Notes under the pieces: generated by a model | Seen by the model: the letters and a program-made list of their open reading frames with translations, nothing else | Databases searched by the model: none | What the model was told of the DNA's origin: nothing | NCBI GenBank assembly: GCA_000004695.1 | Contig: CM000153.2 | Location: 1,280,001 to 1,344,000, forward strand | Length of the DNA stretch: 64,000 nucleotides | Reading direction: 5' to 3' | From: Dictyostelium discoideum | Lineage: Eukaryota | Program-made: the position numbers and the translations under genes | Shown: positions 27,079 to 54,645 of the stretch, piece by piece | Layout: every line of letters starts with the position of its first letter | Numbering within the stretch: the stretch's first letter is position 1

Positions 27079-27437
27079 AAATTAATACTACACAGAAAAA
27101 AGATAATATCATTTTTGAAGAAAAGAAAAAAAAAAAAAAAAAATATCTACCCATTTTAGCACTATCACCAGGGGTTTTGGTGTTTAAAACATCATTAAAA
27201 TGTTGTGTGCCTTCGAATTTCATAGCCTGAAAAATGTGTTCTGATGTTTTTGCCACTAATAATAATAATAACAATGAAATTTTATATTAAAAAATATTCA
27301 TTTTTTTTTTAATTCATATATAATAGATACTAACAAACATTATTATAAAAAACAGTATGACGAGAGAAATTTGAAAATGGGCCATATGGAATCTCGTTTG
27401 GTCTATAAAAGTTTATAACATGTTCATCGTCTGACAT
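26681..27437 (-). CDS. NADAR-domain (YbiA-like, DUF1768) protein, about 151 aa. Exons on the minus strand: 27437..27335, 27255..27151, 27023..26916, 26820..26681.
   Basis: The translation reads MSDDEHVINFYRPNEIPYGPFSNFSRHTVFYNNV|LAKTSEHIFQAMKFEGTQHFNDVLNTKTPGDSAKM|GRDRKRPLRKDWEGVKDELMYEICLAKFSQHKDIQK|KTGDATLVEHTGNDSYWGDGGDGSGRNQLGKTLMRVRETIKNNIKN*. Donors are GTTAGT, GTAGAT and GTATGA. Intron phases 1,1,1 are consistent. Confidence 0.75.
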
Positions 27438-27486
27438 TTTATTATTATTTTGTTTATTTTCTTTATGGATTGATTAAATTGAAATG

Positions 27487-27518
<32 letters not shown>

Positions 27519-27684
27519 TTTAAAATAAAAAAAAAAAAGGGAATTTAAAAGGAAAAAAAAATAAAAAAAAAATAAATAAAAAATAAAATAAATTAATTTA
27601 TTTTTCAAAGAAATCAAAAAAATTAAAGAAAATGACTATTTTTATTTTTATTTTTATTTTTATTTTTATTTTTATTTTTATTTT

Positions 27685-27907
27685 TTAATATTCGTTATTC
27701 GTATTTGTAAAGGCAGATTGTTTATTACTTAAATAATTATAACATTTTGAATAGGTTTTCCTATCTTTTCCCTCTAATTTACTACGAACTAATTCAATTA
27801 ACATTCCATCTGTATCATAACAATAATTATCTAAATTAAAACCTAATTCAACTGATACTTTTTTTAAAACATTATAATTCACATTATTATTTATATTATT
27901 ATTTTTA

Positions 27908-28002
<95 letters not shown>

Positions 28003-29506: not shown

Positions 29507-31425
<1,919 letters not shown>

Positions 31426-32286: not shown

Positions 32287-32339
32287 CAAGCCAATAATAA
32301 TTAAAAAAGTGGAAATAGTTTTTTTTTTTTTAATTTAAT

Positions 32340-35300
32340 TTATTTTTTCTTTGAAGGTAAATTTGATACTTTTGTTGTAACGATATTAATAATTTGATTA
32401 ATTGTTGAGTTTTGAATTTCAGGCATGGATAATATATTTCTAGTAAATTTATTATCAGCCCAATTTTTAACTTCGACAACAAGTAATGAATCAGCACCAT
32501 AATCAATTACCTTTATATCTAAATTGAGTTTGGATTGATCAGTTGAAAGTAGTGATGCAAATTTATCAACGATATCTTGTCTAATTGAAAATTCTTTTTC
32601 GTCAGTCACAGATTCTTTTGATATGATTGGATTTAAAAAGTAATCTAATTTATATGATAGTTTATGATTTTTGTATGTTTTACAAGTAGCGTGGAATTCA
32701 AATGATGCAACCATTTTATTTGTTGATTCGTTTTGATTTTGTAAAAGTAAATCTAAACTACCCCAAACTAAATCTTTTGAAATACCAACCAAACCTTGTA
32801 ATTCAAATAATTTAAAAACAGCATCATTACGTGCAGCAAAACCACCACCTCCCAATAGACCCCAATTGATTGAAATACATGGTAGATTTAATGATTTTCT
32901 ATGTCTTGATAATGCATCTATAAAGCAATTTGAAGCTACATAACCACATTGACGTTGTGATCCTAAAATTGATGTTACTGAACTTGATAAAACAAATTGT
33001 TTTATTGGCCAATTTAATGAAAGTTTATGTAAATTGTAGGCACCCATCGATTTTGCAGAATGAGAGCTAATTAAATGATTCATATCAATCTCTAATGGTT
33101 CACATTCTGCTGGTGAAAATGCATTATGGAATATTGATTCAATTGGTTTAATATCTTTATTTTCTTCAAATAATTGATTAATTGTTTTTAATAAAAGTTT
33201 TTCATCTGAAATATCAACTTGTTTAAAATAGATTTTCAAATTTGTTGATCTTATTCTACCAATTGCTCTTTCTAATTCAAATTTAATTGGTGATTTTGAT
33301 AATACTATTATTGATTCAATAGAATCTGATCTTTTTTCTCTTATCCATTTTATGATTGTATCTGAAAGACCTGCTTGACCTGTTATTAATATTGTTTGAC
33401 CTAAAGTATCTTGATGAATTTTATAATTTGATGAACGATGGATAAAGTTGTGATTATTTGAAAATTCAGGACAATCAATTAAATCAATTCCTTCAGGATC
33501 GTTGAAATTTACAATATTTTTACCAATATGTTTTCTATCACCAAGTGATTCAATTGCTTCTTTAATTTTTGTTACTGGATATACATTGAATGGTATAGTT
33601 TTTAATTTACCACTTGCTAATAAATCAACAATAATTTTCAATACATGTTTATGTTTTCTAAAACCAGCAATGACAGATTCATAAGTCATATAACCAATAT
33701 GATTTTTAAATTTATAAAAATCGGTTGTATCTGTTGTTGTCATATGAGTGATTGATAAATCTATAATTCTACCACCTTGTGAAAGACAATTAAAGTTTGC
33801 ATCCATATAATCTGCTGATAAAGTATTAATAATTAAATCCACACAAATCATTGAAAAACCACCATATTCTTGAGATGGTGCTTTTAGTTCAATTAATTTC
33901 TCTTTAATTAAATATTCATAGTCTGTATTTTTAGTTGAATAAATCTCTGTGATGAAATTACCATAACGATCTTTTAAAAATTGTTTCTTTTCTTCAGAAC
34001 CTACAGTTACAAATAAAAATCCTTTAAATCCATATACTTGTAATAAATCGATACAAGATAAACCAATACCACCACTTCCTGAATGAATTAAAACTGTTTC
34101 AGTCGAACCATGTAAACCTAATCTACCAAGTTCGAATAAACTACAATATGAAGTTAAATAAACCAATGAGATTGATGCTTCAAACCAAGAAATGTTTGAT
34201 GGTTTTAATTCGATTCTGTCTTGATCTACATGAACACTTGATGAAAATGTATGAAAAGTAACTCCCATTACATGATCACCAACTTTGAATTTGGTCACAT
34301 TCTTACCGACTTTGGTAACGATTCCACTTAGTTCATATCCAAATTGTGGTTTTGAAGGATCACCATTTTCATTTGAATTTGCCATATTAATTAATTGACG
34401 ATAAACTAAGAAATCTTTAAAATTAACACCACTTGCCATTACTTTAACTTCAACGAAATTTGGATTCAATGGTAATACTGCTTCTAATGCAAACGTTAAA
34501 TCTGGTTTTAATCTTGAAACTAATTCATTTTTATTTTCAATATATGATTTTGATTTATATTTTAATTTTAAATTTGATTCTAATTTAATTCTTTCATAAT
34601 AAATTTTACCATCACTTCTAATTGAAAATTCATTTTGTGAATGTTTATTTGAATTTGATAATTCTTGAATAATATTAAATAATTTATCACCACCACTAAG
34701 AATATTATTACCTTCAAATTCAAATGAATAAATATTTAATTGATTGAATTCACAAAAGTATCTAAATGAACCAATTAACGATGATCCAAATAAGTTTGAA
34801 GTTTCAAAGTTTATATTTCTTGAAATTAAAATATGTTTACAACCTGAAATTTCATTTTTTAATAAATGTTGATTGATTTCTATATAGTTCATTGAGACTT
34901 GATTAAAGTTATCAACTGTTAATAGATTTACTGACTCAATAAATAATATTAATGATTTATCAGTTAATGGTTGTAATTTGGCATGTTCTTTGAATTTATC
35001 AATTGAATTTATTGCTATTGGAACCACGCCACCACTACCACAGAAAGAAGAACCAATATTAATTTCATCGCAAGTACCAAAAATTATAATTTGATCATAT
35101 TCAGATGTATGCTCTTTACTAACTGAATTAATTGAATTTGATAGATTTGGTTTTTGAACTTGAATTAAATATGGTTCAATTTCACCTGTTGAACATATGA
35201 AATTATTAAATTTCAAATCATTTATTAATAATTGATTCCATTGATTTAGTTTCATTGCACCACTACCAGAATTTAAATAATTAAATGATAACCATTGTTT

Positions 35301-38300
35301 GTAGTTTTCTAAATAATAATCTTCATCTATTGATGTTTGAATGAAATTTGTATCTAAAATTAACAAATGACCGTTTGGAGTTAAAATTTCATTTATAAAT
35401 GAAATTGATGTTTTAATATCTTTAATTTGATTTGTTGTATTTGATAGAATAATTAAATCATAATAAGATGGTGAAAATGATTGTTCTTGTAATTGTTTGT
35501 TTAAATCAATAATTTTAAAGAAACAACTCTTTTTTGAATTAAATAATCTTTCTTTAATTAATAATACTTTTGAATCGGTATAATCTGAAAATACAAATTC
35601 TATATCAATGTTATATGATGGATTATCATTTAAAATTGATTCTAAATTATCATTGATTAGTTTAGTTAATTCACCAACACCACATCCAATTTCTAAAATT
35701 CTAAAAACTATTTTTTCATTTACGATTGGAATAATTGATTTTGAAATTATATCTAAAATTAATTGATGTTGATAAATACCAATATGTGAAATACCTTTAT
35801 TTGAAACAATAGTGTCAACTACTAATAATTCGTTTGGAATGTTATTCAAGAGAAAGTTTGAAACTTGGTTTTGATCAATATGTTTGTGATGTGTTAATAA
35901 AAAGTTGATTGTTAAGAGGATTAAATTGGATCTGATAGTACCAACTTCAACCTCATCCAAGACATATGAATATTTTTCAATCAACTGTTCAAGTGAATTA
36001 TTTTGAAATTCATCAACGGTTAGGTTATTTAATCTTTTCTTTAATATGGAAAAAAGATATGTAGATAGGGTAGATATTGAAATGATATTTGATTGTTGAA
36101 GTTGAAGTTGTTGATTAAAATGTTCTTTCAATATTAATGGTGATTGTAAAATTGAATCTTTTGGTTGAAGACATTGTGAAAATAATTGATTGTTTGGACA
36201 TTCAAGATCAGTTTCACTTTTTGTTGATAGTGTAGATGCAATTGTTACCAATGGAGAATGTAATAGAACAGTGCCATCTTTTAAGAAGCAAGTTGTTTTA
36301 AAATAAATAAAATCACTAAATTGTTTAATAAGCTCAGCATAACAGTAAACGTATTGTTGCTTCACTCTATCTTCTGCAGTTAATGGAACACTTGAAGAAT
36401 AAATTTTTAAATGTTCAATTCTTTCAAAAACAGACGAAGCTGGGTTATCAAAGAAAATACATGGATGTATACATGTATCAATAATGCAAATATTTAAAAA
36501 TGATTCATTATCATAGCTTGAAGTTGGATCCAATGAAACTTTACACAAGCATCTATTATCACCATATGAAGCTTCTTCAATTCTTTGAAATGGTTCTAAT
36601 AGTGAAATGTTTGCATAATTTTTAATTAAATCATATAATTGTTCTCTTTTCAAAGTTGACCAATTACATTGATCACGTATTGATTGAACATCAACTTTTT
36701 TAACTGTTACATCTAAACTTTTCATTAAAATTCTACTATTTGCAGATTGGATCCATTTACCACTTGTTTGATCTTTAAAATTAAATGTTGCTCTATATTC
36801 ATTCTTTGCACTTTTGTAGAGATTAGTTGTAAGAGTTTTTTTTACACCTTCAGTTAATACAAATTGTGATTTAAATTCTAAAAGTGGTATGGTTAAATCT
36901 TGATTTGGGAAAAGTTTTAAAATAATATCCAAATAACCAACTCCTGGGAAAAGTGATTTACCACGAAATTGATGATCTTTTAAGAATCTAAATGGTTCTT
37001 CTTTAATATCGATATATGATGTATATGATATATGTGGCGATGATTCATTTTTATTACCAAGTTGATTTATTGGTGCTCCATTCTTTCTATTGTTTAGTGA
37101 TGAAATACCTTCTCTCCAAAATAATGATTCATCCCATTGATAATGTGGTATTAGATATGAGCATTTCTTGAATGAATTTGATGTTATTTCCGATTTAAAT
37201 TGGGCACTAAAATCGACATTGTAACCAAAACAATAAAGTTGTGAAATTGTTGATTGAATTTCATTAATATCTTCTTTTTTCTTATTTAATGATGATAATA
37301 CACTTATTGAATCTTTGTTTAAAAAGTAATTTGAATTCTTTGGAATCATTTCTTTAACATAATGGTTTAAGGTTGGATGAGGTGATAATTCTAAAAATAT
37401 TACTGAATTACCTAAATCATTTGATTCAATATGTTTGAATATATTTTCAATTGTTTGTTGAAATAATACTGGCTTTCTTAAATTGTCAAATATATAACTT
37501 GAATTATAAGGTGTATTTTTATCGAATTTATTTGATGTGACTGTTGAAAATGTTGTTATAGAAGGTGGTCTTGATTGAATATGATTGGTTGATTCTATGA
37601 TTTCATCTTTGATTATATCTTGTTTTGATGAATGAAATGCTGATGATGTACCTAATAAAGAGTTGAATATTTGTTTATCTTTTAATGATTTTGAAATATT
37701 TAATATATCAAGTTCATTACCACATACAACGATTGATGATGGTGAGTTAAAACATGAAATTTCAATTTCTGGATATTCCTTTGAAAATTGATTATTGAAT
37801 TCTTCAAGATTTAAACTAATTGCTAAAAGTCTTCCAGATCCATTGGTTTTATTTTGAATGGTTGCTCTTTTATATATCACGAAGCATGCTGTTTCTAAAT
37901 CAATCATACCTGAACAAAATGCACTGGCTACTTCTCCTAAACTATGGCCAACTATTATAGATGGTGTGATTCCCCAATGCAAATATAATTTATATAATGA
38001 TATTTGAATCATAAATATAGATGGTTGAGCTAATATTGGTTCATTAATTAGAATTGGATCATCATTAATTGATCTTAGTTTTTGAATGATTGAATATCCA
38101 AAATATTTAAATAGTATTGAATCTAATATATCCATGGATTGTTTATATATTGGTTCATTTTCATATAAATTTAAACCCATTTTTGAATATTGAGGACCTT
38201 GACCACAAAATGAAAATACTAATGGTGGATTAATATCATTTGATTTGATAATATTACCAGATTTATTATTTTTTGTTGAAATAATTTCATTTATATCAAT

Positions 38301-39278
38301 TTTTAAATCATTCCAATCATTACCAATTAAAACTGATCTTTGTGATAATTTGGTTGTTTTTGAATAAACTTGAAACATTGCAAACTCTTCAAAAGTTAAG
38401 CTTTCTGAATATGTATCAATTTCTTCAAGTAGTTTTGATTTGAATTGTTCGAGTGACTTCTTTGAGTTGGTTGAGATTGGTATTAATAATTTTGATTTTT
38501 CATTTAATTTCATAGATGTTTGATTTTTTAATTCTGAAGGTTTGATATATTCAGACAATAAAACACATGCATTTGAACCAGTTATACCAAAACTATTGAT
38601 TGCCATTGATACTTGTCTATCTGGGAATGCTGTTGTTTCTGTACATACTTTAACATTCCATTCTTTGAATTTAATATTTGGATTTGGGTTATTGAAATGA
38701 ATATTCTTTACAAATTGACGATGTTTAAACATTAAACAAACTTTTGCTAATGATGCTACACCTGATGCAGGTTCAAGATGACCAATATTTGATTTAACTG
38801 ATCCAATTAATAATGGTTCTTGTTTAACATTTTTAAAAATATCAGCAACAGCTTCAACTTCGATTGGATCACCTACTTGTGTACCTGTACTATGTAATTC
38901 AAAGAAATCAATATCTTGATATTTCATTGCACCATTGGATGATAAAAATGCATTTTTGATATTAGTTGATTGTGCATTTTTTGAAGGTGCAAAAAAGTTT
39001 GTTTTCTTAAAAGTACCATCTACATTTGAACTACTTCCTTTCATTACACAATAAATTTGATCACCATCTTGAATTGCAAGTGATAATCTTTTTAAAATTA
39101 ATACAACAACACCTTCTGAACGTACAAAACCGTCGGCAGATTCGTCAAATGAATTACATCTACCAGATTTACCTGTAATATTAATTGAATGAAATGATCT
39201 AGTAATATATGGATCTTTTTTTAGAATAATAATAATAAAAATAAAAATAAAAATATTAGAAATATGGAAATGAAAAAC

Positions 39279-39321
<43 letters not shown>

Positions 39322-40136
39322 ACTAATATTATAATAATAATAATTACTTAATAATATATTACAACCAGCTACTACAGAGTAATTTGATTTACCATTAACA
39401 ATTGATTCATATCCTAAATGAACTGCATTTAATGATGATGAACATGCTGTATCAAGTGTTAATGAAGTACCACGTAAATCAAAACAATATGATATTCTAT
39501 TTGCAAATGCACTGAGAGTACCATTAAAAACATTGATTGGTGCTTCATTTTGTTCGAAATTAATAAAAGAATAATCAGTATTTGCGGCACCAACAAAAAC
39601 AGAAGTATTGGTTCCTCTGAGTTTTAAAGGATCAATTGATGCATCTTCAAATGCTTCCCATGTTAACTTTAACATTAATTTAATTTGTGGATCAATTTGT
39701 TTAGCATCAGTTGGATTGATTCCAAAAAACAATGGTTCAAAAGAATGCCAATTCTCTTCCAAATCAATTAATCCTGCGTTCTTATTTGAGATTTCTCCCA
39801 TACTATGGAATGTGTCGCTCCATCTAAATAAATAAAAATAATAATAATTTTAAAAAAAAAAAAAAAAAAAGGAAGGCAATTGTTTGATGAAAATCAAAAA
39901 ATAAGAAAAAATGAAAAAAAAAAAAAAAAAATGAAAAAAAGCAGTGTTAGTTATGATTTTTTTTTTTTTTCATTTTTTTTTTTTTACCTTTCGTTAGAAT
40001 CAACAATTCCATCAAAACCACCAAGCAAATTTTTCCAAAATTCTGAAGGAGAACCCGAGTTACCTGGTAATCTTAGCCCAAGACCAACAATCGCAACTTG
40101 GTTATCATTGTTCTTTTCAATATTTCCTTCAATCAT
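32340..40136 (-). CDS. Highly reducing iterative type I polyketide synthase, copy 1 (2,499 aa), with domain order KS-AT-DH-CMeT-ER-KR-ACP. Exons on the minus strand: 40136..39988, 39823..39348, 39214..32340.
   Basis: KS: exon 1 MIEGNIEKNNDNQVAIVGLGLRLPG…, active-site DTACSSSL, and HSTGTQVGDPIE. AT: GHSLGEVASAFCSG. DH: HQFRGKSLFPGVGYLD. CMeT: LEIGCGVGELT. ER: LIHSGSGGIGLSCIDLLQ. KR: ILITGQAGLSDTII. ACP: IDYGADSLLVVE. Donors GTAAAA(39987) and GTAATT(39347) give intron phases 2 and 1. A (TA)17 tract lies in intron 2. Confidence 0.9.
39285..39318. repeat. (TA)17 dinucleotide microsatellite in intron 2 of PKS copy 1. The copy-2 intron has only (TA)4.
   Basis: Seen directly in the sequence. Confidence 0.9.
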
Positions 40137-40997
40137 TTTAGATTTCAAATTATCTATTTATTATAATACTTGTAACTATTGAAATGAATTATTTAAATGA
40201 GTATTTTTATATCTTCTTTCAAAAAGAAACGAATATTTAAATAATTTTTTTTTTTTTACCTCTATTTATTTTTTTTTTTTTTTTTTTTTTTTTTCTTTCT
40301 TAAGTTAGATAACCACCATTCTTTATAATTTGGATGGAAAATTTTTACAGATAATCATTGGAGGGAACATATATACACGTGCAAATGGGAAAACCCCTTT
40401 CTTTTTAAAACAATAAATAAATTTTAACTTTACATAATTACCTTCGTCCATAAATCCAAATAATAATAAATTTCTAAAATTACTGCTTTAATAAATTTTA
40501 TTGGAATGCTTCCACTTAAATCTTTATTTTGGGGGTGAAAATTTGTTTTTTTGTTTCTTGTTTTTTTTTTTTACCCCTACCACTCCTTGACTTTTTTTTA
40601 ATATCTCCCATTTTTATAATTTCATTTTTGTTTCATATAACCAAAAAGTCAAAAAAAGTTAACTTTTTTTTTTCATAAAATTTGTGATTGGACCACTTCA
40701 AAAATTTTTGCACAAATTATCTATAACTTTTTTTTTGCACTGCAATTGACCTTTTAATCGACTTACCAATTGTTGGTGATTAAAATATAAATAAATAAAA
40801 AATAAAAATAAAATAAAAATAAAAATAAACCCGCCATTGAAAAAAAATTGTTGAAAAGTCTTTATATTGTTTTTTTTTAATTATATAACGATATAGAGGA
40901 TAGAAAAAAAAAAAAAAAATTGTGTAGAAAAAAAAAAATATAAAAAAAAAAAAAAAAAAAAATATAGCTTTAAATTTAAAATTTTATATTAAGAAAA
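40137..40997. promoter_or_regulatory. Bidirectional (divergent) promoter region shared by PKS copy 1 (minus) and P450 copy 1 (plus).
   Basis: An 861-bp spacer lies between the two start codons. It contains blocks conserved with the copy-2 spacer (50598..51359) despite otherwise heavy divergence: ttgtaactattgaaatgaattatttaa, ataaccaccatt, attttattggaatg…ccactt, aaagtcaaaaaaag, aaatttgtgattg.accactt and caattga.cttttaat.cgact.accaatt…gttggtgattaaa. Confidence 0.55.
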
Positions 40998-42607
40998 ATG
41001 GAAATAATTAATGTTTTTTTGTTTCTAATCATTCTTTTCTTGGTAAAAGATTTTGTATGTATTTAAATTTTTATATTTTAGAAAATTATTACAATTTATT
41101 AATTCTTTACATAAAAAAAAAAAAAAATAAAAAAAAAAAGGTTAAAAAAAATAAGAAAATTCATACAAAATCTCCAAGTGGACCAATTGCATTTCCTATT
41201 CTTGGAAATGTTGTTCAAATTAGATTTTGGGAATTATTCAAAATTCAAGAACATGAATTATTTGGTGGTTATAGTAAAAAATATAATGGTGTTGTAAGAG
41301 CATGGTTTGGAGAAAGATTATTTTTTTTTGTTTCAAATTATGATGTTGTAAAGTATTTTCAAAAAGATGAAAACTTCCATAACAGACCATCAGTTTTAGT
41401 TCCAGGTTGGAGATATGCTTCAAGTAATGGGCTAGGTGTAATGAGCTCATCTGATGACAAATGGAAAAGAGCAAAATCAAGTGTTTCGCAATCATTAAGA
41501 GTTCGTACAACTAAAAAATTAATGGAAGAAAAAGCAATTGAATTTATTGATTCACTTGAAAAAATTTCAAATAATAATGAAATTGTAAGTTTTTAAAAAT
41601 AATAATTACAATCAAAATATTGATAACATATTAATTTATTAAATTTTTATTTTTAGTTTTATCCAAAAGGACATATTCAAGGATATGCTTGTTCAATGTT
41701 ATTCAAATATATGTTTAATCAAGATTTATCAGTTGAAAGTGGCATGTCAAGAACTATTGGTAATGCAGTTGAACATGTTTTTGGTAATCTTTCAAAATTA
41801 ACTGCATTTGATTGTTTTGAAATTTTCTCACCACTTTATGATTGGTTCTTTACAAGAAGATTAAAAGGTTGCGATATCGTTAGACAAATAATCAGTAGTC
41901 AAAATGAAAATCATTTAAAGTCAATTGATCCAAGTAAACCAAGAGATTTAATGGATGATTTGTTAATTGAATATGGATTAAATGAAATCACTAAAGAAGA
42001 TACAATGCAAATCAATCAAATTTGTTTTGATATTTTTGGACCAGCCGTTGGTACAGTTACAATCACAATGAATTGGGTAATTTTACAATTATGTAATCGT
42101 CCAGAACTTCAAGAGATTGCATATCAAGAAATTAAAAAAGCTGTCAAAGATGATGAATATGTCAATTTGAATCATAAACAAAATGCCCCTTATATCGTTG
42201 CCTTTATTAAAGAAACAATGAGACTTTGTTCAAATGGATTTGGTTTACCAAGAACTGCTAAAAATGATCAAATTTGTGGTGATTTTTTCATTCCAAAAGA
42301 TGCTATTATTTTTATTAATTATTTAGAAATTAGTCAAAATGAAGAAATCTTTAAAAATGCCAAAGAATTTAACCCAACTCGTTATTTAGATGAATCACTT
42401 CCTGTACCAAATATTCACTTTGGTGTTGGTCAAAGAGCATGTCCTGGTCGTTTTGTCGCAATCGATAAAATGTTTCTTGGAATTTCAAATTTACTTTTAA
42501 AGTATAAATTAAAAACTCAAAATGGTGAAAAAATTGATGATTCAATTCAATTTAGTGTTTCTTTAAAAGCAAAAGATTATGGAATAAAATTAGAAAAGAG
42601 AATTTAG
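40998..42607 (+). CDS. Cytochrome P450 monooxygenase, copy 1 (482 aa). Exons 40998..41054, 41141..41584, 41657..42607.
   Basis: N-terminal TM anchor MEIINVFLFLIILFLVKDF. Lys-rich hinge followed by SPSGPIAFPILGN. ExxR motif (ETMRL). Heme-binding loop FGVGQRACPG. Donors are GTATGT(41055) and GTAAGT(41585); both introns are phase 0. Confidence 0.85.
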
Positions 42608-42761
42608 AACAACAATAATAATAATAAAAATTGTATTTAATGTTTTTATTTTTTATTTTTTATTTTTATTTAATTATTTATTTATTTATTATAAATTAAA
42701 AAGTTTTTTTTAGAACAATAATAATTAAAAAATTGGAAATAGTTTTTTTTTATTTATTTAT

Positions 42762-45700
42762 TTATTTTTTCTTTGAAGGTAAATTTGATACTTTTGTTGT
42801 AACGATATTAATAATTTGATTAATTGTTGAGTTTTGAATTTCAGGCATGGATAATATATTTCTAGCAAATATATTATCAGCCCAATTTTTAACTTCGACA
42901 ACAAGTAATGAATCAGCACCATAATCAATTACCTTTATATCTAAATTGAGTTTGGATTGATCAGTTGAAAGTAGTGATGCAAATTTATCAACGATATCTT
43001 GTCTAATTGAAAATTCTTTTTCGTCAGTCACAGATTCTTTTGATATGATTGGATTTAAAAAGTAATCTAATTTATATGAAAGTTTATGATATTTGTATGT
43101 TTTACAAGTAGCGTGGAATTCAAATGATGCAACCATTTTATTTGTCGATTCGTTTTGATTTTGTAAAAGTAAATCTAAACTACCCCAAACTAAATCTTTT
43201 GAAATACCAACCGAACCTTGTAATTCAAATAATTTAAAAACAGCATCATTACGTGCAGCAAAACCACCACCTCCCAATAGACCCCAATTGATTGAAATAC
43301 ATGGTAGATTTAATGATTTTCTATGTCTTGATAATGCATCTATAAAGCAATTTGAAGCAACATAACCACATTGACGTTGTGATCCTAAAATTGATGTTAC
43401 TGAACTTGATAAAACAAATTGTTTTATTGGCCAATTTAATGAAAGTTTATGTAAATTGTAGGCACCCATCGATTTCGCAGAATGAGAGCTAATTAAATGA
43501 TTCATATCAATTTCTAATGGTTCACATTCTGCTGGTGAAAATGCATTATGGAATATTGATTCAATTGGTTTAATATCTTTATTTTCTTCAAATAGTTGAT
43601 TAATTGATTTTAATAAAAGTTTTTCATCTGAAATATCAACTTGTTTAAAATAGATTTTCAAATTTGTTGATCTTATTCTACCAATTGCTCTTTCTAATTC
43701 AAATTTAATTGGTGATTTTGATAATACTATTATTGATTCAATAGAATCTGATCTTTTTTCTCTTATCCATTTTATGATTGTATCTGAAAGACCTGCTTGA
43801 CCTGTTATTAATATTGTTTTACCTAAAGTATCTTGATGAATTTTATAATTTGACGAAGGATGGATAAAGTTGTGGTTATTTGAAAATTCAGGACAATCAA
43901 TTAAATCAATTCCTTCAGGATCGTTGAAATTTACAATATTTTTACCAATATGTTTTCTATCACCAAGTGATTCAATTGCTTCTTTAATTTTTGTTACTGG
44001 ATATACATTGAATGGTATAGTTTTTAATTTACCACTTGCTAATAAATCAACAATAATTTTCAATACATGTTTATGTTTTCTAAAACCAGCAATTACAGAT
44101 TCATAGGTCATATAACCAATATGATTTCTAAATTTATAAAAATCGGTTGTATCTGTTGTTGTCATATGAGTGATCGATAAATCTATAATTCTACCACCTT
44201 GTGAAAGACAATTAAAGTTTGCATCCATATAATCTGCTGATAAAGTATTTATAATTAAATCCACACAAATCATTGAAAAACTACCATATTCTTGAGATGG
44301 TGCTTTTAATTCAATTAATTTCTCTTTAATTAAATATTCATAGTCTGTATTTTTAGTTGAATAAATCTCTGTGATGAAATTACCATAACGATCTTTTAAA
44401 AATTGTTTCTTTTCTTCAGAACCTACAGTTACAAATAAAAATCCTTTAAATCCATATACTTGTAATAAATCGATACAAGATAAACCAATACCACCACTTC
44501 CTGAATGAATTAAAACTGTTTCAGTTGAACCATATAAATCTAATCTACCAAGTTCGAATAAACTACAATATGAAGTTAAATAAACTAAAGATTGTGATGC
44601 TTCAAACCAAGAAATGTTTGATGGTTTTAATTCGATTCTGTCTTGATCTACATGAACACTTGATGAAAATGTATGAAAAGCACCTCCCATTACATGATCA
44701 CCAACTTTGAATTTGGTCACATTCTTACCGACTTTGGTAACGATTCCACTTAGTTCATATCCAAATTGTGGTTTTGAAGGATCACCATTTTCATTTGAAT
44801 TTGCCATATTAATTAATTGACGATAAACTAAGAAATCTTTAAAATTAACACCACTTGCCATTACTTTAACTTCAACGAAATTTGGATTCAATGGTAATAC
44901 TGCTTCTAATGCAAATGTTAAATCTGGTTTTAATCTTGAAACTAATTCATTTTTATTTTCAATATATGATTTTGATTTATATTTTAATTTTAAATTTGAT
45001 TCTAATTTAATTCTTTCATAATAAATTTTACCATCACTTCTAATTGAAAATTCATTTTGTGAATGTTTATTTGAATTTGATAATTCTTGAATAATATTAA
45101 ATAATTTATCACCACCATCACCACTAAGGATATTATTACCTTCAAATTCAAATGAATATATATTTAATTGATTGAATTCACAAAAGTATCTAAATGAACC
45201 AATTAATGATGATCCAAATAAGTTTGAAGTTTCAAAGTTTACATTTCTTGAAATTAAAATATGTTTACAACCTGAAATTTCATTTTTTAATAAATGTTGA
45301 TTGATTTCTATATAGTTCATTGAGACTTGATTAAAATTATCAACTGTTAATAGATTTACTGATTCAATAAATAATATTAATGATTTATCAGTTAATGGTT
45401 GTAATTTGACATGTTCTTTAAACTTATCAATTGAATTTATTGCTATTGGAACTAAGCCATAGAAAGAAGAACCAATATTAATTTCATCACAAGTACCAAA
45501 AATTATAATTTGATCATATTCTGATGAATGCTCTTTACTAACTGAATTAATTGAATTTGATAAATTTGATTTTTGAACTTGAATTAAATATGGTTCAATT
45601 TCACCTGTTGAACATATGAAATTATTAAATTTCAAATCATTTATTAATAATTGATTCCATTGATTTAGTTTCATTGCACCACTACCAGAATTTAAATAAT

Positions 45701-48700
45701 TAAATGATAACCATTGTTTGTAGTTTTCTAAATAATAATCTTCATCTATTGATGTTTGAATGAAATTTGTATCTAAAATTAACAAATGACCGTTTGGAGT
45801 TAAAATTTCATTTATAAATGAAATTGATGTTTTAATATCTTTAATTTGATTTGTTGTATTTGATAGAATAATTAAATCATAATAAGATGGTGAAAATGAT
45901 TGTTCTTGTAATTGTTTGTTTAAATCAATAATTTTAAAGAAACAACTCTTTTTTGAATTAAATAATCTTTCTTTAATTAATAATACTTTTGAATCGGTAT
46001 AATCTGAAAATACAAATTCTATATCAATGTTATATGATGGATTATCATTTAAAATTGATTCTAATTTATCATTGATTAGTTTAGTTAATTCACCAACACC
46101 ACATCCAATTTCTAAAATTCTAAAAACTATTTTTTCATTTACGATTGGAATAATTGATTTTGAAATTATATCTAAAATTAATTGATGTTGATAAATACCA
46201 ATATGTGAAATACCTTTATTTGAAACAATAGTATCAAGAACTAATAATTCGTTTGGAATGTTATTCAAGAGAAAGTTTGAAACTTGGTTTTGATCAATAT
46301 GTTTGTGATGTGTTAATAAAAAGTTGATTGATAAGAAGATTAAATTGGATCTGAAAGTACTAGCTTCTTGAATCTCTTCCAAGATATATGAATATTTTCC
46401 GATAAACTCTTCAAGTGAACCATTTTGAAATTCATCAGTGGTTAGGTTATTCAATATTTTCTTTAATGTGGAAAAAAGATAAGAGGATAGAGTAGATATT
46501 GAAATGATATTTGATTGTTGAAGTTGAAGTTGTTGATTAAAATATTCTTTCAATATTAATGGTGATTGTAAAATTGAATCTTTTGGTTGAAGACATTGTG
46601 AAAATAATTGATTGTTTGGACATTCAATATTAGTATCAATATTTGTTGATAGAGTAGATGCAATTGTTACCAATGGAGAATGTAATAGAACAGTGCCATC
46701 TTTTAAGAAGCAAGTTGTTTTAAAATAAATAAAATCACTATATTTTTTAATAAGTTCAACATAACAGTAAACGTATTGTTGCTTCACTCTATCTTCTGCA
46801 GTTAATGGAACACTTGAAGAATAAATTTTTAAATGTTCAATTCTTTCAAAAACAGACGAAGCTGGGTTATCAAAGAAAATACATGGATGTATACATGTAT
46901 CAATAATGCAAATATTTAAAAATGATTCATTATCATAGCTTGAAGTTGGATCCAATGAAACTTTACACAAGCATCTATTATCACCATATGAAGCTTCTTC
47001 AATTCTTTGAAATGATTCTAATAGTGAAATGTTTGAATAGTTTTTAATTAAATCATATAATTGTTCTCTTTTCAAAGTTGACCAATTACATTGATCACGT
47101 ATTGATTGAACATCAACTTTTTTAACTGTTACATCTAAACTTTTCATTAAAATTCTACTATTTGCAGATTGGATCCATTTACCACTTGTTTGATCTTTAA
47201 AATTAAATGTTGCTCTATATTCATTCTTTGCACTTTTGTAGAGATTAGTTGTAAGAGTTTTTTTTACACCTTCAGTTAATACAAATTGTGATTTAAATTC
47301 TAAAAGTGGTATGGTTAAATCTTGATTTGGGAAAAGTTTTAAAATAATATCCAAATAACCAACTCCTGGGAAAAGTGATTTACCACGAAATTGATGATCT
47401 TTTAAGAATCTAAATGGTTCTTCTTTAATATCGATATATGATGTATATGATATATGTGGTGATAATTCATTTTTATTACCAAGTTGATTTATTGATGCTC
47501 CATTTTTTCTATTATTTATTGATGAAATACCTTCTCTCCAAAATAATGATTCATCCCATTGATAATGTGGTATTAGATATGAGCATTTCTTGAATGAATT
47601 TGATGTTATTTCCGATTTAAATTGGGCACTAAAATCAATATTGTAACCAAAACAATAAAGTTGTGAAATTGTTGATTGAATTTCGTTGATATCTTCTTTT
47701 TTCTTATTTAATGATGATAATACACTTATTGAATCTTTGTTTAAAAAGTAATTTGAATTCTTTGGAATCATTTCTTTAACATAATGGTTTAAAGTTGGAT
47801 GAGGTGATAATTCTAAAAATATTACTGAATTACCTAAATCATTTGATTCAATATATTTGAATATGTTTTCAATGGTTTGTTGAAATAATACTGGCTTTCT
47901 TATATTGTCAAATATATAATTTGAATCATAAGGTGTATTTTTATCGAATTTATTTGATGTGACTGTTGAAAATATTGTTATAGAAGGTGGTCTTGATTGA
48001 ATATGATTGGTTGATTCTATGATTTCATCTTTGATTATATCTTGTTTTGATGAATGAAATGCTGATGATGTACCTAATAAAGAGTTGAATATTTGTTTCT
48101 CTTTTAATGATTTTGAAATATTTAATATATCAAGTTCATTACCACATACAACGATTGATGATGGTGAGTTAAAACATGAAATTTCAATTTCTGGATATTC
48201 CTTTGAAAATTGATTATTGAATTCTTCAAGATTTAAACTAATTGCTAAAAGTCTTCCAGATCCATTGGTTTTATTTTGAATGGTTGCTCTTTTATATATC
48301 ACGAAGCATGCTGTTTCTAAATCAATCATGCCTGAACAAAATGCACTGGCTACTTCTCCTAAACTATGGCCAACTATTATAGATGGTGTGATTCCCCAAT
48401 GCAAATATAATTTATATAATGATATTTGAATCATAAATATAGATGGTAGAGCTAATATTGGTTCATTAATTAGAATTGGATCATCATTAATTGATCTTAG
48501 TTTTTGAATGATTGAATATCCAAAATATTTAAATAGTATTGAATCTAATAAATCCATGAATTCTTTGAATATTGGTTCATTTTGATATAAATTTAAACCC
48601 ATTTTTGAATATTGAGGACCTTGACCACAAAATGAAAATACTAATGGTGGATTAATATCATTTGATTTGATAATATTACCAGATTTATTATTTTTTGTTG

Positions 48701-50597
48701 AAATAATTTCATTTATATCAATTTTTAAATCATTCCAATCGTTACCAATTAAAACTGATCTTTGTGATAATTTGGTTGTTTTTGAATAAACTTGAAACAT
48801 TGCAAACTCTTCAAAAGTTAAGCTTTCTGAATATGTATCAATTTCTTCAAGTAGTTTTGATTTGAATTGTTCGAGTGACTTCTTTGAGTTGGTTGAGATT
48901 GGTATTAATAATTTAGATTTTTCATTTAATTTCATAGATGTTTGATTTTTTATTTCTGAAGGTTTGATGTATTCAGACAATAAAACACATGCATTTGAAC
49001 CAGTTATACCAAAACTATTGATTGCCATTGATACTTGTCTATCTGGGAATGCTGTTGTTTCTGTACATACTTTAACATTCCATTCTTTGAATTTAATATT
49101 TGGATTTGGGTTATTGAAATGAATATTCTTTACAAATTGACGATGTTTAAACATTAAACAAACTTTTGCTAATGATGCTACACCTGATGCAGGTTCAAGA
49201 TGACCAATATTTGATTTAACTGATCCAATTAATAATGGTTCTTGTTTAACATTTTTAAAAATATCAGCAACAGCTTCAACTTCGATTGGATCACCTACTT
49301 GTGTACCTGTACTATGTAATTCAAAGAAATCAATATCTTGATATTTCATTGCACCATTGGATGATAAAAATGCATTTTTGATATTAGTTGATTGTGCATT
49401 TTTTGAAGGTGCAAAAAAGTTTGTTTTCTTAAAAGTACCATCTACATTTGAACTACTTCCTTTCATTACACAATAAATTTGATCACCATCTTGAATTGCA
49501 AGTGATAATCTTTTTAAAATTAATACAACAACACCTTCTGAACGTACAAAACCATCAGCAGATTCATCAAATGAATTACATCTACCAGATTTACCTGTAA
49601 TATTAATTGAATGAAATGATCTAGTAATATATGGATCTTTTTTTAGAATAATAATAATAAAAAAAATAAAAATTTTAGAAATATGAAAACTATTTTATAT
49701 ATATGTGTTACCAATATTATAATAATAATTACTTAATAATATATTACAACCAGCTACTACAGAGTAATTTGATTTACCATTAACAATTGATTCATATCCT
49801 AAATGAACTGCATTTAATGATGATGAACATGCTGTATCAAGTGTTAATGAAGTACCACGTAAATCAAAACAATATGATATTCTATTTGCAAATGCACTGA
49901 GAGTACCATTAAAAATATTGATTGGTGCTTCATTTTGTTCGAAATTAATCAAAGAATAATCAGTATTTGCGGCACCAACAAAAACAGAAGTATTGGTTCC
50001 TCTGAGTTTTAAAGGATCAATTGATGCATCTTCAAATGCTTCCCATGTTAACTTTAACATTAATTTAATTTGTGGATCAATTTGTTTAGCATCAGTTGGA
50101 TTGATTCCAAAAAACAATGGCTCAAAAGAATGCCAATTCTCTTCCAAATCAATTAATCCTGCATTCTTATTTGAGATTTCTCCAATACTATGGAGTGTGT
50201 CGCTCCATCTAAATAAAAAATAATAATTTAAAAAAAAAAAAAAAAAAGAAGATAATGATGAAAATAAAAAAAAAGAAAAAAATTAAAATAAAAAAAAAAC
50301 GGTGTGTTAGTGGTGGGTCACGATAACTTTTTTTTTTTATATTTTTATTTTTATTTTATTTTTTTTTTTTTTTTATTTTTTTTTTTTTTTTTTATAATTC
50401 CCATTTTATATTATTTATTTTTTAATTATTTTTTTTTTTTTTTTTTACCTTTGATTAGAATCAACAATTCCATCAAAACCATCAAGCAAGTTTTTCCAAA
50501 ATTCTAAAGGAGAACCCGAGTTACCTGGTAATCTTAGCCCAAGACCAACAATCGCAACTTGGTTATCATTGTTCTTTTCAAAATTTCCTTCGATCAT
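42762..50597 (-). CDS. Highly reducing iterative type I polyketide synthase, copy 2 (2,499 aa, KS-AT-DH-CMeT-ER-KR-ACP), a tandem paralogue of copy 1. Exons on the minus strand: 50597..50449, 50208..49733, 49636..42762.
   Basis: Exon lengths are identical to copy 1 (149/476/6875 nt). The main exon is about 98-99% identical at DNA level. Differences are confined to a few patches and three compensating in-frame indels. Confidence 0.9.
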
Positions 50598-51359
50598 TTT
50601 AGATTTCAATTTATATATTTATTATAAAATTTGTAACTATTGAAATGAATTATTTAATTAAGTAATTTTTTTTTTTTTTTTTTATTCTTTTGAAATATTT
50701 AAATAATATTTTTTTTTAACCTTTAAATTAAATAACCACCATTTTTTATTTTATTTATTTTATTATATTATATTATATTTTTTTCTTTAAATTAAATAAC
50801 CACCATTTAATAAAAATTTGGACAATTGCCGACAGATAATCACTCAAAAAAAAAAAAAAAAAAATTTTATTGGAATGTACCACTTGTAAGATCTTAATTT
50901 TGGGCTAAAATTTGTTTTTTGTTTTTTTTTATTTTTGTTTTTTTTATTTTTTGTTTTTTTTTATTTTTTAATTTTTTTAATTTAAATTAATTACCACACC
51001 TTTTTTATAATATCATTTTTGTTTTTTATAAAAAGTCAAAAAAAGGTTTAAACCTTTAACTTTTTTTAATTTTTTTTTAATAAAATTTGTGATTGAACCA
51101 CTTAAAATTTTTTTGTTTTTCAAATTATCTTTTTTTTACCTGTAATTGATCTTTTAATTAATCGACTCACCAATTAATTGTTGGTGATTAAATCATAAAA
51201 AATAAAAAAATAAAAAAATAAATAAAAGATAAAAACAAAATAAACCTTCCATTTAAAAAAAATTGTTGTCAAGAAAAAAAAAAGAGGAGGATAAAAAAAA
51301 AAAAAAATAATTGTTAAGAAAAAAAAAAAAAAGTTAGTAATACTATATTATTAAGAGAA
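50598..51359. promoter_or_regulatory. Bidirectional promoter region shared by PKS copy 2 and P450 copy 2.
   Basis: It has the same conserved blocks as 40137..40997. The AACCACCATT-containing unit occurs twice here, at 50734..50743 and 50797..50806. Confidence 0.55.
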
Positions 51360-52963
51360 ATGGAAATAGTTAATGTTTTATTATTTCTAATTATACTTTT
51401 CTTGGTGAAAGATTTTGTATGTATCTAAATTTTCTATATTTTAGAAATAATTAAAATTACTTAATTAATTCTTTACAAAAAAAAAAAAGGTTAAAAAAAA
51501 TAAGAAAATTCATACAAAATCTCCAAGTGGACCAATTGCATTTCCTATTCTTGGAAATGTTGTTCAAATTAGATTTTGGGAATTATTCAAAATTCAAGAA
51601 CATGAATTAATTGGTAATTATAGTAAAAAATATAATGGTGTTGTAAGAGCATGGATTGGAGAAAGATTATTTTTATTTGTTTCAAATTATGATGTTGTAA
51701 AGTATTTTCAAAAAGATGAAAATTTCCTTTACAGACCATCACTTTTAGTTCCAGGTTGGAGATATGCTTCAAGTAATGGATTAGGTGTAATGAGCTCATC
51801 TGATGACGAATGGAAAAGAGCAAAATCAAGTGTTTCTCAATCATTAAGAGTTCATACATCTAAAAAATTAATGGAAGAAAAAGCAATTGAATTTATTGAT
51901 TCACTTGAAAAAATTTCAAATAATAATGAAATTGTAGGTTTTTTTTTAAAGAAATAATAATTACAATTAAAATTATTGATAACATATTAATTTATTAAAT
52001 AATTATTTTAAGTTTTATCCAAAAGGACATATTCAAGGATATGCTTGTTCAATGTTATTCAAATATATGTTTAATCAAGATTTATCAGTTGAAAGTGGCA
52101 TGTCAAGAACTATTGGTAATGCAGTTGAACATGTTTTTGGTAATCTTTCAAAATTAACTGCATTTGATTGTTTTGAAATTTTCTCACCACTTTATGATTG
52201 GTTCTTTACAAGAAGATTAAAAGGTTGCGATATCGTTAGACAAATAATCAGTAGTCAAAATGAAAATCATTTAAAGTCAATTGATCCAAGTAAACCAAGA
52301 GATTTAATGGATGATTTGTTAATTGAATATGGATTAAATGAAATCACTAAAGAAGATACAATGCAAATCAATCAAATTTGTTTTGATATTTTTGGACCAG
52401 CCGTTGGTACAGTTACAATCACAATGAATTGGGTAATTTTACAATTATGTAATCGTCCAGAACTTCAAGAGATTGCATATCAAGAAATTAAAAAAGCTGT
52501 CAAAGATGATGAATATGTCAATTTGAATCATAAACAAAATGCCCCTTATATCGTTGCCTTTATTAAAGAAACAATGAGACTTTGTTCAAATGGATTTGGT
52601 TTACCAAGAACTGCTAAAAATGATCAAATTTGTGGTGATTTTTTCATTCCAAAAGATGCTATTATTTTTATTAATTATTTAGAAATTAGTCAAAATGAAG
52701 AAATCTTTAAAAATGCCAAAGAATTTAACCCAACTCGTTATTTAGATGAATCACTTCCTGTACCAAATATTCACTTTGGTGTTGGTCAAAGAGCATGTCC
52801 TGGTCGTTTTGTCGCAATCGATAAAATGTTTCTTGGAATTTCAAATTTACTTTTAAAGTATAAATTAAAATCTCAAAATGGTGAAAAAATTGATGATACA
52901 ATTCATTTTAGTGTTTCTTTAAAAGCAAAAGATTATGGAATAAAATTAGAAAAGAGAATTTAG
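51360..52963 (+). CDS. Cytochrome P450 monooxygenase, copy 2 (482 aa). Exons 51360..51416, 51490..51933, 52013..52963.
   Basis: Same exon structure and phases as copy 1. Exon 3 is identical in protein sequence except for 3 residues near the C-terminus. Exon 2 carries 10 substitutions and exon 1 carries 2. Confidence 0.85.
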
Positions 52964-53064
52964 AACAATAAAAATAATTGTATTTAATTCAAATTATTAT
53001 CCCAATTCATTGATTTAAATAATTATTATTAATAAAGACTTTTTTTAAAAAAAAAATTATTTTT

Positions 53065-53103
<39 letters not shown>

Positions 53104-53703
53104 TCTATTTATTTATTTTTTAACCCTATTTTTTTTTTTTTTTTTTATATTTTCATTTTTGCTAACAAATGTGTAATCTATTAAAAAGAGATAATTTGAA
53201 ATTATTATTTTTAATATTTATTATAGAAATATATAATAATAAAAATAATAATAAAAATTTCGCACAATCATTGTTATTATTATTTCTATAATAAATAGGG
53301 AATTTAATTCAAATAGCCTTTGTGGATAACTAAATATGTTATGTTGAACTTCATTAATTTATAAAAATAAAAAAAAAAAAAAAAAAAAAAAAAAATAAAA
53401 ACAAATTAAGAATTTCCAACTTTATTAATAAAAAATATAATATCGGTAAAGTTGAAGGGGTATTTAAAAAATTTCAACATTGCTCGACCCCTCTTCAACT
53501 TAATCGGTATTTAATTTTTTTTTTTTTACTCTATGTTGTTAGTGGTAAAATTAAAATAAAAATAAAAAAATAAAAATAAAAATAAAAATAAAAATAAAAA
53601 TAAAAATAAAAACAATGGTGTTGTTTAAAGATTTAAGTTTTTTTTTGTTTTTTTTTTTTTTTTTTAATACATATTTTTTAAAATTCTAATACAAATAAAA
53701 TAA

Positions 53704-54645
53704 ATGTCAAATACTTCAAGTGATAATTATAAAGTTTGGTTCATAACTGGAGTTACAGGTGGAGCAGGTAAAGCATTAGCATCTAGATTATTAGAAATTG
53801 GAGGTTATAAAGTTGCAGGTACATCCAGAAGTAAAGAGAAATTAAATTCTTTAGATGGTAGTTTAATATCAAATAAGGATTTCCTTAGATTACAAGTAAA
53901 TTTAATTGATGAGAAAAATGTAAAGGAATCAATTGAAGAAACCATAAAGAAATTCGGTAAAATTGATATTATTGTAAATAATGCCGGACAATCAATATTT
54001 GGTAGTGTTGAAGAGATTACTGATAAAGAACAAAGGTTATTAATGGATGTATTGTATTTCGGTCCTTGTAATGTAATTCGTTCAGTTTTACCTCATTTTA
54101 GAAAGAGAAAATCCGGTTTAATCTTCAACATCTCTTCAGTTATTGGTGGTGATCCTACCAATAATGTACCCTTCTTTTCTGGATATTGTGCTGGTAAATC
54201 TGCAATTCACTCAATGACTCAATGTCTCAGGGAAGAGGTTAAACAATTTAATATTAATGTGTGTTGCATCCTTTTAGGTTATTTAAAAACCAGTTTCAGT
54301 AGTCCATTAACAACTAATCAAATTAAAGACTATAATCTTAAAGAGAAAGCCAATGATATGAATAAACAATTCCAAAATAATACACCAGAATCACCAATTA
54401 ATTTTGCTAATTTTATCATTGAAAATTCAAAACATTCAAATATTCCCCAAACAATCCAATTTGGTAAAAATCCATACCATAATCCAAATAATTCAAATAA
54501 TCCAAATAATAATAATAAACCATCTTATCCTCATCAAAAAGTAAGAGTTAATCAAGATCTTCCAAAGCAATTTGATAAAGATATTGCAAATTTACCAGAA
54601 TTAACTGATGGTAATATTCATATGCCTTATATTTTACATGAATAA
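53704..54645 (+). CDS. Short-chain dehydrogenase/reductase (classical SDR), 313 aa.
   Basis: Cofactor motif ITGVTGGAGKA (TGxxxGxG). NNAG motif. Ser (SSVIGG) and YCAGK (YxxxK) catalytic residues. Single exon. It lies immediately downstream of the duplicated PKS/P450 module. Confidence 0.8.
   Translation: MSNTSSDNYKVWFITGVTGGAGKALASRLLEIGGYKVAGTSRSKEKLNSLDGSLISNKDFLRLQVNLIDEKNVKESIEETIKKFGKIDIIVNNAGQSIFGSVEEITDKEQRLLMDVLYFGPCNVIRSVLPHFRKRKSGLIFNISSVIGGDPTNNVPFFSGYCAGKSAIHSMTQCLREEVKQFNINVCCILLGYLKTSFSSPLTTNQIKDYNLKEKANDMNKQFQNNTPESPINFANFIIENSKHSNIPQTIQFGKNPYHNPNNSNNPNNNNKPSYPHQKVRVNQDLPKQFDKDIANLPELTDGNIHMPYILHE

Follow-up and report, generated by a model that had tools for sequence, protein, structure and literature searches.

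Which of the neighbouring enzyme genes around two polyketide synthase (PKS) genes on Dictyostelium discoideum AX4 chromosome 4, pks22 and pks23, form a biosynthetic pathway with them? We analysed a 64,000-nucleotide window of this chromosome (GenBank assembly GCA_000004695.1, contig CM000153.2, positions 1,280,001 to 1,344,000 of the forward strand; G+C content, ~24%). A preliminary description of the window, made from the sequence alone, had proposed a candidate gene cluster in which two near-identical units, each with a PKS gene and a divergently transcribed cytochrome P450 gene, are joined by a short-chain dehydrogenase/reductase (SDR) gene. Our analysis favours, with a probability of roughly 65%, a smaller system: a two-gene biosynthetic cassette of PKS and P450 that is present twice, not a three-gene cluster. 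The locus is an ordinary and already annotated one to which we add useful detail, and no new kind of system. This work established the gene structures and domain sets, how the pair is conserved and how its copy number varies; expression values were taken from the literature.

Gene models were built with GT..AG introns. The first unit (unit A) contains pks22 (DDB_G0284001, Q54QD3) on the minus strand at 32340..40136 (exons 32340-39214, 39348-39823 and 39988-40136; 2499 aa) and cyp517A1 (DDB_G0283929, Q54QD2) on the plus strand at 40998..42607 (exons 40998-41054, 41141-41584 and 41657-42607; 483 aa). Their start codons diverge from an 861-bp spacer (spacer A, 40137..40997), presumed to be a bidirectional promoter. 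Beyond a unit-unit junction made up of AT-rich filler and the 3' flanks of the P450 and the PKS (42608..42761), the second unit (unit B) contains pks23 (DDB_G0283931, Q54QD1) on the minus strand at 42762..50597 (exons 42762-49636, 49733-50208 and 50449-50597; 2499 aa), a 762-bp spacer (spacer B, 50598..51359) and cyp517A4 (DDB_G0283933, Q54QD0) on the plus strand at 51360..52963 (exons 51360-51416, 51490-51933 and 52013-52963; 483 aa). The shared spacer of about 0.8 kb noted earlier is thus present in both units, but the two spacers are not near-identical (~81% identity over alignable columns, i.e., ~19% mismatch, with many indels). All five modelled proteins, including the SDR, were identical to public D. 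discoideum AX4 proteins by exact sequence match. UniProt already lists the four PKS and P450 products as "Probable polyketide synthase 22/23" and "Probable cytochrome P450 517A1/A4"; the genes and their adjacency had been annotated before, of which the preliminary description was unaware.

The PKS and P450 genes occur as a pair in other species as well. The head-to-head arrangement, with the PKS on the minus strand and the P450 on the plus strand, recurred in four other genomes, from D. firmibasis, D. citrinum (two strains) and D. dimigraforme, and the flanks of the pair differed among species. In D. firmibasis (PKS, 65% identical; P450, 71% identical), a 1516-aa gene and an anoctamin gene lie beyond the P450. 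The pair of D. citrinum GCA_054859325.1 is surrounded by ComC-like genes, a sulphur transporter gene and a peptidase S9 gene. In D. citrinum GCA_054859145.1, there is an MFS transporter gene on one side and alpha/beta-hydrolase, SIR2 and purC/E genes on the other. Rearrangements reach both ends of the pair, and none fell between the two genes. A diverged isolate (GCA_054859235.1) carries an array that repeats both genes together; its endpoints were not mapped. Being conserved and co-duplicated, the divergent PKS and P450 genes form one evolutionary unit, and that part of the proposed cluster stands. The SDR probably does not belong to it.

The SDR gene (DDB_G0283935, Q54QC9) lies on the plus strand at 53704..54645, with a Sec1-family gene next. 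As described earlier, its 313-aa product is a classical SDR with TGxxxGxG and YxxxK motifs (TGVTGGAG at residue 15, NNAG at 92 and YCAGK at 161; PF00106, E=5e-40). It does not follow the second unit directly, however, but starts 740 bp past the cyp517A4 stop on the same strand, outside the repeat. A single pathway of PKS, P450 and SDR, with the SDR reducing or oxidising the polyketide, would fit the adjacency seen in all D. discoideum clade assemblies in which the SDR locus was retrieved (for GCA_054859235.1, adjacency was inferred from consecutive locus tags only). Yet the SDR orthologues lie away from the pair in D. firmibasis, D. citrinum and D. dimigraforme. In the first two species the orthologue sits between Peptidase_C1 and Sec1. 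The D. firmibasis SDR is on CM069766 and the PKS pair on a different chromosome, CM069765; the distance between SDR and pair is ~52 kb in D. citrinum (same contig) and ~22 kb in D. dimigraforme. Across species, adjacency of the SDR to the pair is not conserved.

The adjacency in D. discoideum can be explained by inversion. Compared with D. firmibasis and D. citrinum, where it borders the SDR on the 5' side, a block at 17147-26191 of the window runs in the opposite orientation; it comprises a peptidase C1 gene (+) and two genes of 1375 aa (+) and 1357 aa (-). The ComC block next to the P450 of D. citrinum GCA_054859325.1 sits at 10-17 kb in the window. These two displacements imply at least one inversion, which put the P450 3' end beside the SDR in the D. 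discoideum lineage. A single-inversion model fitted D. citrinum GCA_054859325.1 and not GCA_054859145.1, which has another arrangement, and we therefore limit the claim to at least one inversion.

Published expression data (Kin et al. 2018, PMC6198379, supplementary file 5; time course and prestalk/prespore values from Parikh et al. 2010) also bear on the SDR. It is developmentally induced, with a time-course correlation (r) of ~0.9 on a log scale with the late PKS/P450 pair, and it is included in the cup-specific sheet, both of which would suit a three-gene pathway. Its profile is nevertheless distinct. At the slug stage the SDR is a prespore gene (prespore, 50; prestalk, 0.36); it peaks at 20 h at 527 units, compared with 24 h for cyp517A1 and pks23; and its cup enrichment is weak (18 in cup versus 11 in spore). 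Its expression is about ten-fold higher, with an earlier peak. Given orthologues elsewhere, a position outside the repeat and different expression, the proposal that the SDR is a cluster member is not supported; we consider a three-gene pathway unlikely and the SDR probably a bystander outside the pathway. Beyond dictyostelids, the best relatives of the SDR are Flavobacterium and Pedobacter oxidoreductases (40-43% identity, E ~1e-47), and its C-terminal ~60 residues form an Asn/Pro-rich extension.

Next, we considered the duplication itself. Self-comparison by BLAST agreed with the near-identical tandem units reported earlier, revealing a direct repeat of ~10.4 kb (period, 10.35-10.43 kb). Positions 32292-39928 aligned with 42716-50299 (97.2% identity), 39952-40208 with 50409-50670 (92%) and 40987-42622 with 51349-52978 (96.1%). 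The repeat unit extends past the PKS stop by ~50-65 bp at one end and past the P450 stop by ~15-35 bp at the other; it encloses the PKS and P450 only, with the SDR outside. The copies are ~3% apart in DNA (>330 sites plus indels), and both sets of open reading frames (ORFs) are intact. The PKS copies (96.8% amino acid identity) differ by a synonymous rate (dS) of 0.040 and a nonsynonymous rate (dN) of 0.013 (omega, 0.33). Between the P450 copies, dS is 0.029 and dN 0.014, and exon 3 has no synonymous differences. Both copies are under purifying selection. Identity between the copies is patchy, ranging from 100% to 92% in 300-bp windows.

A two-copy structure could in principle reflect a collapsed or falsely expanded repeat in the assembly. 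The AX4 reference is a 2005 Sanger assembly, and its central 2.5 kb is arranged otherwise in an independent assembly, so part of the local AX4 assembly is doubtful. The divergence of the copies at >330 sites and indels, with ORFs kept, argues against such an artefact. Independent assemblies based on Nanopore and Illumina reads (Hehmeyer et al. 2025, PMC12745789) argue against it further: in GCA_054883475.1, from a near-identical strain, two units are followed by the SDR and Sec1, with flanks as in AX4, and this long-read-based assembly bears out the existence of both copies. Wild isolates had one unit or at least three. D. discoideum GCA_054859385.1 has a single unit, and D. cf. discoideum GCA_054859235.1 has the order P450-PKS-P450-PKS-P450 running into the contig end, i.e., at least two full units and a third P450. 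Copy number across isolates therefore ranges from 1 to at least 3. For copy number, the artefact is refuted by the independent assembly and the wild-isolate counts, and we regard an artefactual two-copy structure as highly improbable.

Paralogues within a genome differed by 2.0% (AX4) and 1.9% (the cf. discoideum isolate), compared with 3.2-5.7% for orthologues between isolates; both AX4 copies were equidistant from D. citrinum (11.6-11.8%). Because paralogues are closer than between-isolate orthologues, the units have undergone either independent recent duplications or concerted evolution, and the array is variable in copy number either way. We conclude that the duplication is genuine, recent and dynamic. 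In D. dimigraforme there is an additional P450 without an adjacent PKS (locus positions 15605-17239) and, elsewhere on the contig of its pair, a second PKS copy with 83% identity (ACTA71_001803), which suggests that this species duplicated the genes independently. In one D. discoideum assembly (ACTFIW locus tags), the annotation splits the PKS into two ORFs (1183 and 1259 aa) and gives the P450 a length of 445 aa; these genes are either pseudogenes or products of assembly or annotation errors.

Comparison with GCA_054883475.1 also uncovered a new feature of this locus: relative to the AX4 reference, this near-identical strain has the central 2.5 kb of its two units swapped reciprocally. The central segment of unit A (39132..41654), which spans the PKS 5' end, the spacer and P450 exons 1 and 2, belongs to the SDR-proximal unit in GCA_054883475.1, and its reciprocal partner from unit B (49554..52010) belongs to the distal unit. 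Along the SDR-proximal unit of that assembly, informative sites matched AX4 unit B (127 sites), then A (203 sites) and then B again (5 sites); along the distal unit they matched A (127), then B (197) and then A (5). No informative site matched neither AX4 unit. There were 0 mismatches to AX4 in the unit segments compared, with gaps in the central segments only, and 8 mismatches in 9.9 kb of the right flank. GCA_054883475.1 is probably the AX2-214 laboratory strain of PMC12745789, an identity we infer and that is not given in its record.

The swap breaks within perfectly identical sequence, in the longest two such stretches of the repeat (584 bp, 38548-39131; 860 bp, 41655-42514). We think it probable that the centres of the two units are wrongly joined in the AX4 reference. 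Reciprocity is perfect in a strain otherwise identical inside the units, the identical stretches of 860 and 584 bp are about the length of a Sanger read, and the AX4 time course pairs the genes according to the linkage in GCA_054883475.1. On the other hand, long identical stretches are also favoured by homologous exchange, through which laboratory lineages could truly have come to differ; assembly or polishing of the Nanopore data could have introduced an error; and the AX2-214 identity is only inferred. If the reference is mis-joined, the true linkage would likely be the pks22 body with a cyp517A4-type centre and the pks23 body with a cyp517A1-type centre, and the four annotated gene models (pks22, pks23, cyp517A1 and cyp517A4) would be chimeric.

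In the published data, all five genes appear on the "Cup" (cup-specific) sheet (PMC6198379). At 0, 4, 8, 12, 16, 20 and 24 h of development, the values for cyp517A1 are 0, 0.18, 2.0, 2.3, 4.8, 17.8 and 183, and those for pks23 are 0.08, 0.04, 0.55, 1.5, 1.6, 6.5 and 42 (PMC6198379). The corresponding series are 0, 1.9, 1.9, 7.6, 7.5, 2.7 and 8.2 for cyp517A4 and 0.24, 0.47, 4.0, 8.5, 6.6, 5.2 and 12 for pks22 (PMC6198379). In cup, spore, stalk and vegetative cells, respectively, the same source gives 259, 6.5, 8.5 and 0.5 for cyp517A1; 26, 1.3, 0.8 and 0.3 for pks23; 66, 5.9, 3.9 and 1.5 for cyp517A4; and 8.1, 0.1, 0.4 and 0.2 for pks22. All four genes are thus close to 0 in vegetative cells, upregulated in development and enriched in cup cells (PMC6198379). 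At the slug stage, the P450s and pks23 lean toward prestalk and pks22 has no clear bias (PMC6198379). The four genes have a developmental and cup-enriched pattern in common; the SDR has a prespore, earlier and higher profile.

The time courses correlated most closely for cyp517A1 with pks23 (r = 0.99) and for cyp517A4 with pks22 (r = 0.88), which are the pairs that share a spacer in GCA_054883475.1. Partners across a spacer of the window correlate less closely (r = 0.80 and 0.62). Expression and the GCA_054883475.1 linkage, two independent lines of evidence, both point to co-expression within the divergent pairs and to a probable mis-linking of the centres in the reference. The suggestion that shared bidirectional promoters co-regulate the genes accordingly fits under the GCA_054883475.1 linkage but not under the linkage of the window. 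The two units differ in timing, in keeping with their diverged spacers.

To characterise the enzymes, we compared both PKS copies with Pfam domains and solved structures. Pks22 and Pks23 both contain, in order, ketosynthase (KS), KS-C, acyltransferase (AT), dehydratase (DH), methyltransferase (MT), enoyl reductase (ER), ketoreductase (KR) and acyl carrier protein (ACP) domains. The ER was detected as ADH_N plus ADH_zinc_N_2, and Pfam detects only the N-terminal half of the DH. The SdgA-type ACP stops 2 residues short of the C terminus, and Pfam found no thioesterase (TE) or reductase (R) domain in either protein. These results support the highly reducing domain set without TE or R that had been described, and a motif scan recovered every motif quoted for it in both copies. 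At equivalent positions, both copies retain the KS Cys/His/His residues, the AT GHSxG and the DH HxxxGxxxxP and DxxxH motifs; also intact in both are the MT ExGxGxG, ER GGxG, KR Tyr and ACP DSL. Judged by these residues, the MT and ER may well be active. The AT motif, GHSLGE ... SAFH, is of the malonyl type. The best solved-structure match was D. discoideum Pks16 (9nju, E=0).

The relatives of Pks22/23 bear on how the chain is released. Dictyostelid PKS paralogues are 38-51% identical to Pks22/23, and the nearest clade includes Pks45 at 46%, others at ~50% and a D. purpureum protein at 51%. These Pks2/Pks44/Pks45-type paralogues (46-51% identical) are collinear with Pks22/23 over residues 5-2494, but they are ~3000 aa long and carry a C-terminal thioester reductase (PF07993), whereas Pks22/23 stop at the ACP. 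Predicted AT-ACP contacts group the Pks2/Pks44/Pks45-type proteins with Pks22/23 (PMC12828403). The D. firmibasis orthologue of Pks22/23 likewise terminates at the ACP, and we found no remnant of a thioester reductase 3' of pks22 or pks23. As the nearest clade has the reductase, and Pks22/23 and the D. firmibasis orthologue have none and no remnant is left, the Pks22/23 lineage appears to have lost reductive release. As a conserved linked release enzyme we considered an alpha/beta-hydrolase (233 aa, GYSYGG) located 650 bp 3' of the PKS in D. citrinum GCA_054859145.1 only (locus positions 18437-19138). It was absent from the other loci examined and from the window and was therefore rejected as a conserved member.

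The two P450s differ at 15 positions over 483 aa. PF00067 spans residues 31-478 of CYP517A1/A4, with the heme loop FGVGQRACPG, ETMR as the ExxR motif and a PERF-like FNPTRY. At the N terminus, a hydrophobic anchor precedes KKNKK and a Pro-rich hinge, which makes these P450s microsomal in type. The cyp517A1 synonym "ostA" (dictyBase; Kin et al. 2018 supplement) could not be traced to its origin.

Are PKS and P450, then, parts of one pathway, or neighbours without one, which share only a bidirectional promoter region and have been co-inherited and co-duplicated by adjacency, with an unrelated P450 substrate? Several points weigh against the two-gene cassette. Because a spacer of 0.5-0.9 kb is a small breakpoint target that is seldom hit, adjacency could persist by chance over short evolutionary distances, and the species compared are close relatives: at E<=1e-30, members of the CYP517 family were detected only in the D. 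discoideum complex, apart from a 26% match in Cavenderia. A 54%-identical CYP517 paralogue has no adjacent PKS. The I-helix acid-alcohol pair, (A/G)Gx(D/E)T, is replaced by PAVGTV (residues ~295-301; window ~42040-42060 and 52396-52416), with the acid changed to Gly and the Thr kept. The Gly is found in all CYP517A orthologues and in the 54% paralogue, and the Cavenderia homologue has GGVDTT. The I-helix acid is typical of P450s and not strictly defining. A search for a conserved promoter motif was negative: no GC-containing 9-mer was common to the PKS-P450 spacers of at least four species. If the units are taken as drawn in the window, the strongest correlation of either P450 is with the PKS from the opposite unit, and short-read assignment between 97%-identical paralogues is imperfect. 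Finally, the literature searched contained no functional data and no product or mutant for Pks22/23-CYP517A. Text searches for cyp517A1, cyp517A4 and the DDB_G identifiers gave no match; pks22/pks23 appeared only in a structural-modelling paper (PMC12828403); and the 2025 global PKS study (PMC12625978) made no pks22/23 mutant.

On the opposite side, breakpoints lie directly beside the pair in several lineages and never between its genes. The AX4 duplication endpoints enclose both genes, and GCA_054859235.1 repeats both. The genes are tightly co-expressed (r up to 0.99), and the DdTPS8-CYP521A1 pair, discussed below, shows that such a layout can be functional. We thus judge an absence of any common pathway to be rather improbable and retain the two-gene cassette. 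In the literature searched, the coverage of which is incomplete, the pks22/23-cyp517A pairing, its conservation, its copy-number variation and the reference discrepancy are undescribed.

The cassette may work as follows. An iterative highly reducing type I PKS resembling a fatty acid synthase (Pks22 or Pks23) would build a reduced and possibly methyl-branched acyl chain from malonyl units on its own ACP, using KR, DH, ER and perhaps MT activities. The programming of iterative PKSs is cryptic and cannot be read from sequence, and this applies to the C-methylated, fully reduced chain predicted earlier. Because the PKS has no release domain, the chain would leave the ACP through an unlinked activity, in trans or by hydrolysis. 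A P450 anchored in the endoplasmic reticulum (CYP517A1 or CYP517A4), encoded divergently from a spacer of 0.76-0.86 kb, would then oxidise the released product. The action of the P450 on the PKS product, the nature of that product and the release step are our conjectures. The cassette would be turned on in multicellular development, most strongly in the cup cells of the fruiting body; one unit would reach its peak at 8-16 h, its counterpart at 24 h. Recent tandem duplication, variable in copy number and with sequence exchange between the copies, would account for coding regions 97-100% identical beside diverged spacers, and the adjacent SDR would be a bystander placed by rearrangement in the D. 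discoideum lineage.

A fuller reading joins a two-gene cup-cell pathway, a timing split, gene conversion, a dosage polymorphism and chimeric AX4 models; taken as a whole it is tentative, and we would not presume that all of its parts hold together. If it is true, a cassette specific to the D. discoideum complex makes an oxidised, reduced polyketide, the divergent spacers split its timing between mid-development and late culmination, gene conversion keeps the enzymes near-identical, and the copy number of 1 to at least 3 is a dosage polymorphism.

The wider neighbourhood has been mobile too. In the window, purC/E (AIR carboxylase plus ATP-grasp) is at the left (1817-3703, +); in D. citrinum GCA_054859145.1 it is located 3' of the PKS (locus positions 27326-27783), from which it follows that the whole 50-kb neighbourhood has been reshuffled among close relatives. 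A second and older local duplication is seen in two tandem ComC-like genes (TIG, EGF and ComC supersandwich domains) at 10830-12881 and 14548-16843 (+), in which positions 12036-12665 and 16031-16636 are 90% identical. Directly 3' of pks22, a 575-aa low-complexity ORF (29698-31425, -) contains runs of His, Gln-Pro, Asn and Ser, and the local GC skew is 0.41; orthologues of 594-619 aa are found at the equivalent place in D. dimigraforme and further D. discoideum isolates. An intron-containing protein-kinase gene (27685-29171, -) lies beside it. We considered tRNA genes as possible targets of rearrangement or retrotransposons; the window contains none.

For product discovery, a PKS that has a conserved enzyme as its partner offers a practical target, and the narrow expression (cup cells, 20-24 h) and natural one-copy and multicopy strains strengthen this target. 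One guide RNA can hit both PKS copies, and a published phosphopantetheinyl transferase-null metabolome is available for comparison. The SDR is removed as a false lead. The probable reference error bears on primer, guide and reporter design and on paralogue-specific expression of the four genes.

Among known systems, fungal highly reducing PKS clusters such as that for lovastatin (LovB/LovA/LovG) combine a TE-less PKS with a clustered P450 and a separate release enzyme. They comprise many genes (regulator, transporter and hydrolase), compared with two here, and the likeness is one of analogy, not orthology. Closer at hand, the D. discoideum family of iterative type I PKSs (40 genes) has the same KS-AT-DH-MT-ER-KR-ACP layout as Pks22/23, and most of its members likewise lack a TE. 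Products are known for only ~4 of the 40 (PMC12828403, PMC12625978); the characterised enzymes are Pks16 (a fatty acid synthase, 9nju), Pks5 (dictyodenes), StlA and StlB. Pks22/23 differ from the family in their identity of ~40% or less to other named members and in their P450 partner. Adjacent, highly similar PKS gene pairs are a known trait of this family (PMC12828403). The pks24/pks25 pair also shares a promoter region but consists of two PKS genes with no tailoring enzyme (Günther et al. 2025, PMC12625978). A parallel in gene layout is DdTPS8-CYP521A1, a divergent synthase/P450 pair of D. discoideum with a 685-bp spacer, compared with 762-861 bp here (Chen et al. 2019, eLife, PMC6524965). 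That paper only speculates on PKS-CYP combinations. Both pairs are off in growth and co-induced in development; DdTPS8-CYP521A1 differs in that its synthase is a terpene synthase, that it has no tandem duplication, and that both its product and its P450 step have been proven.

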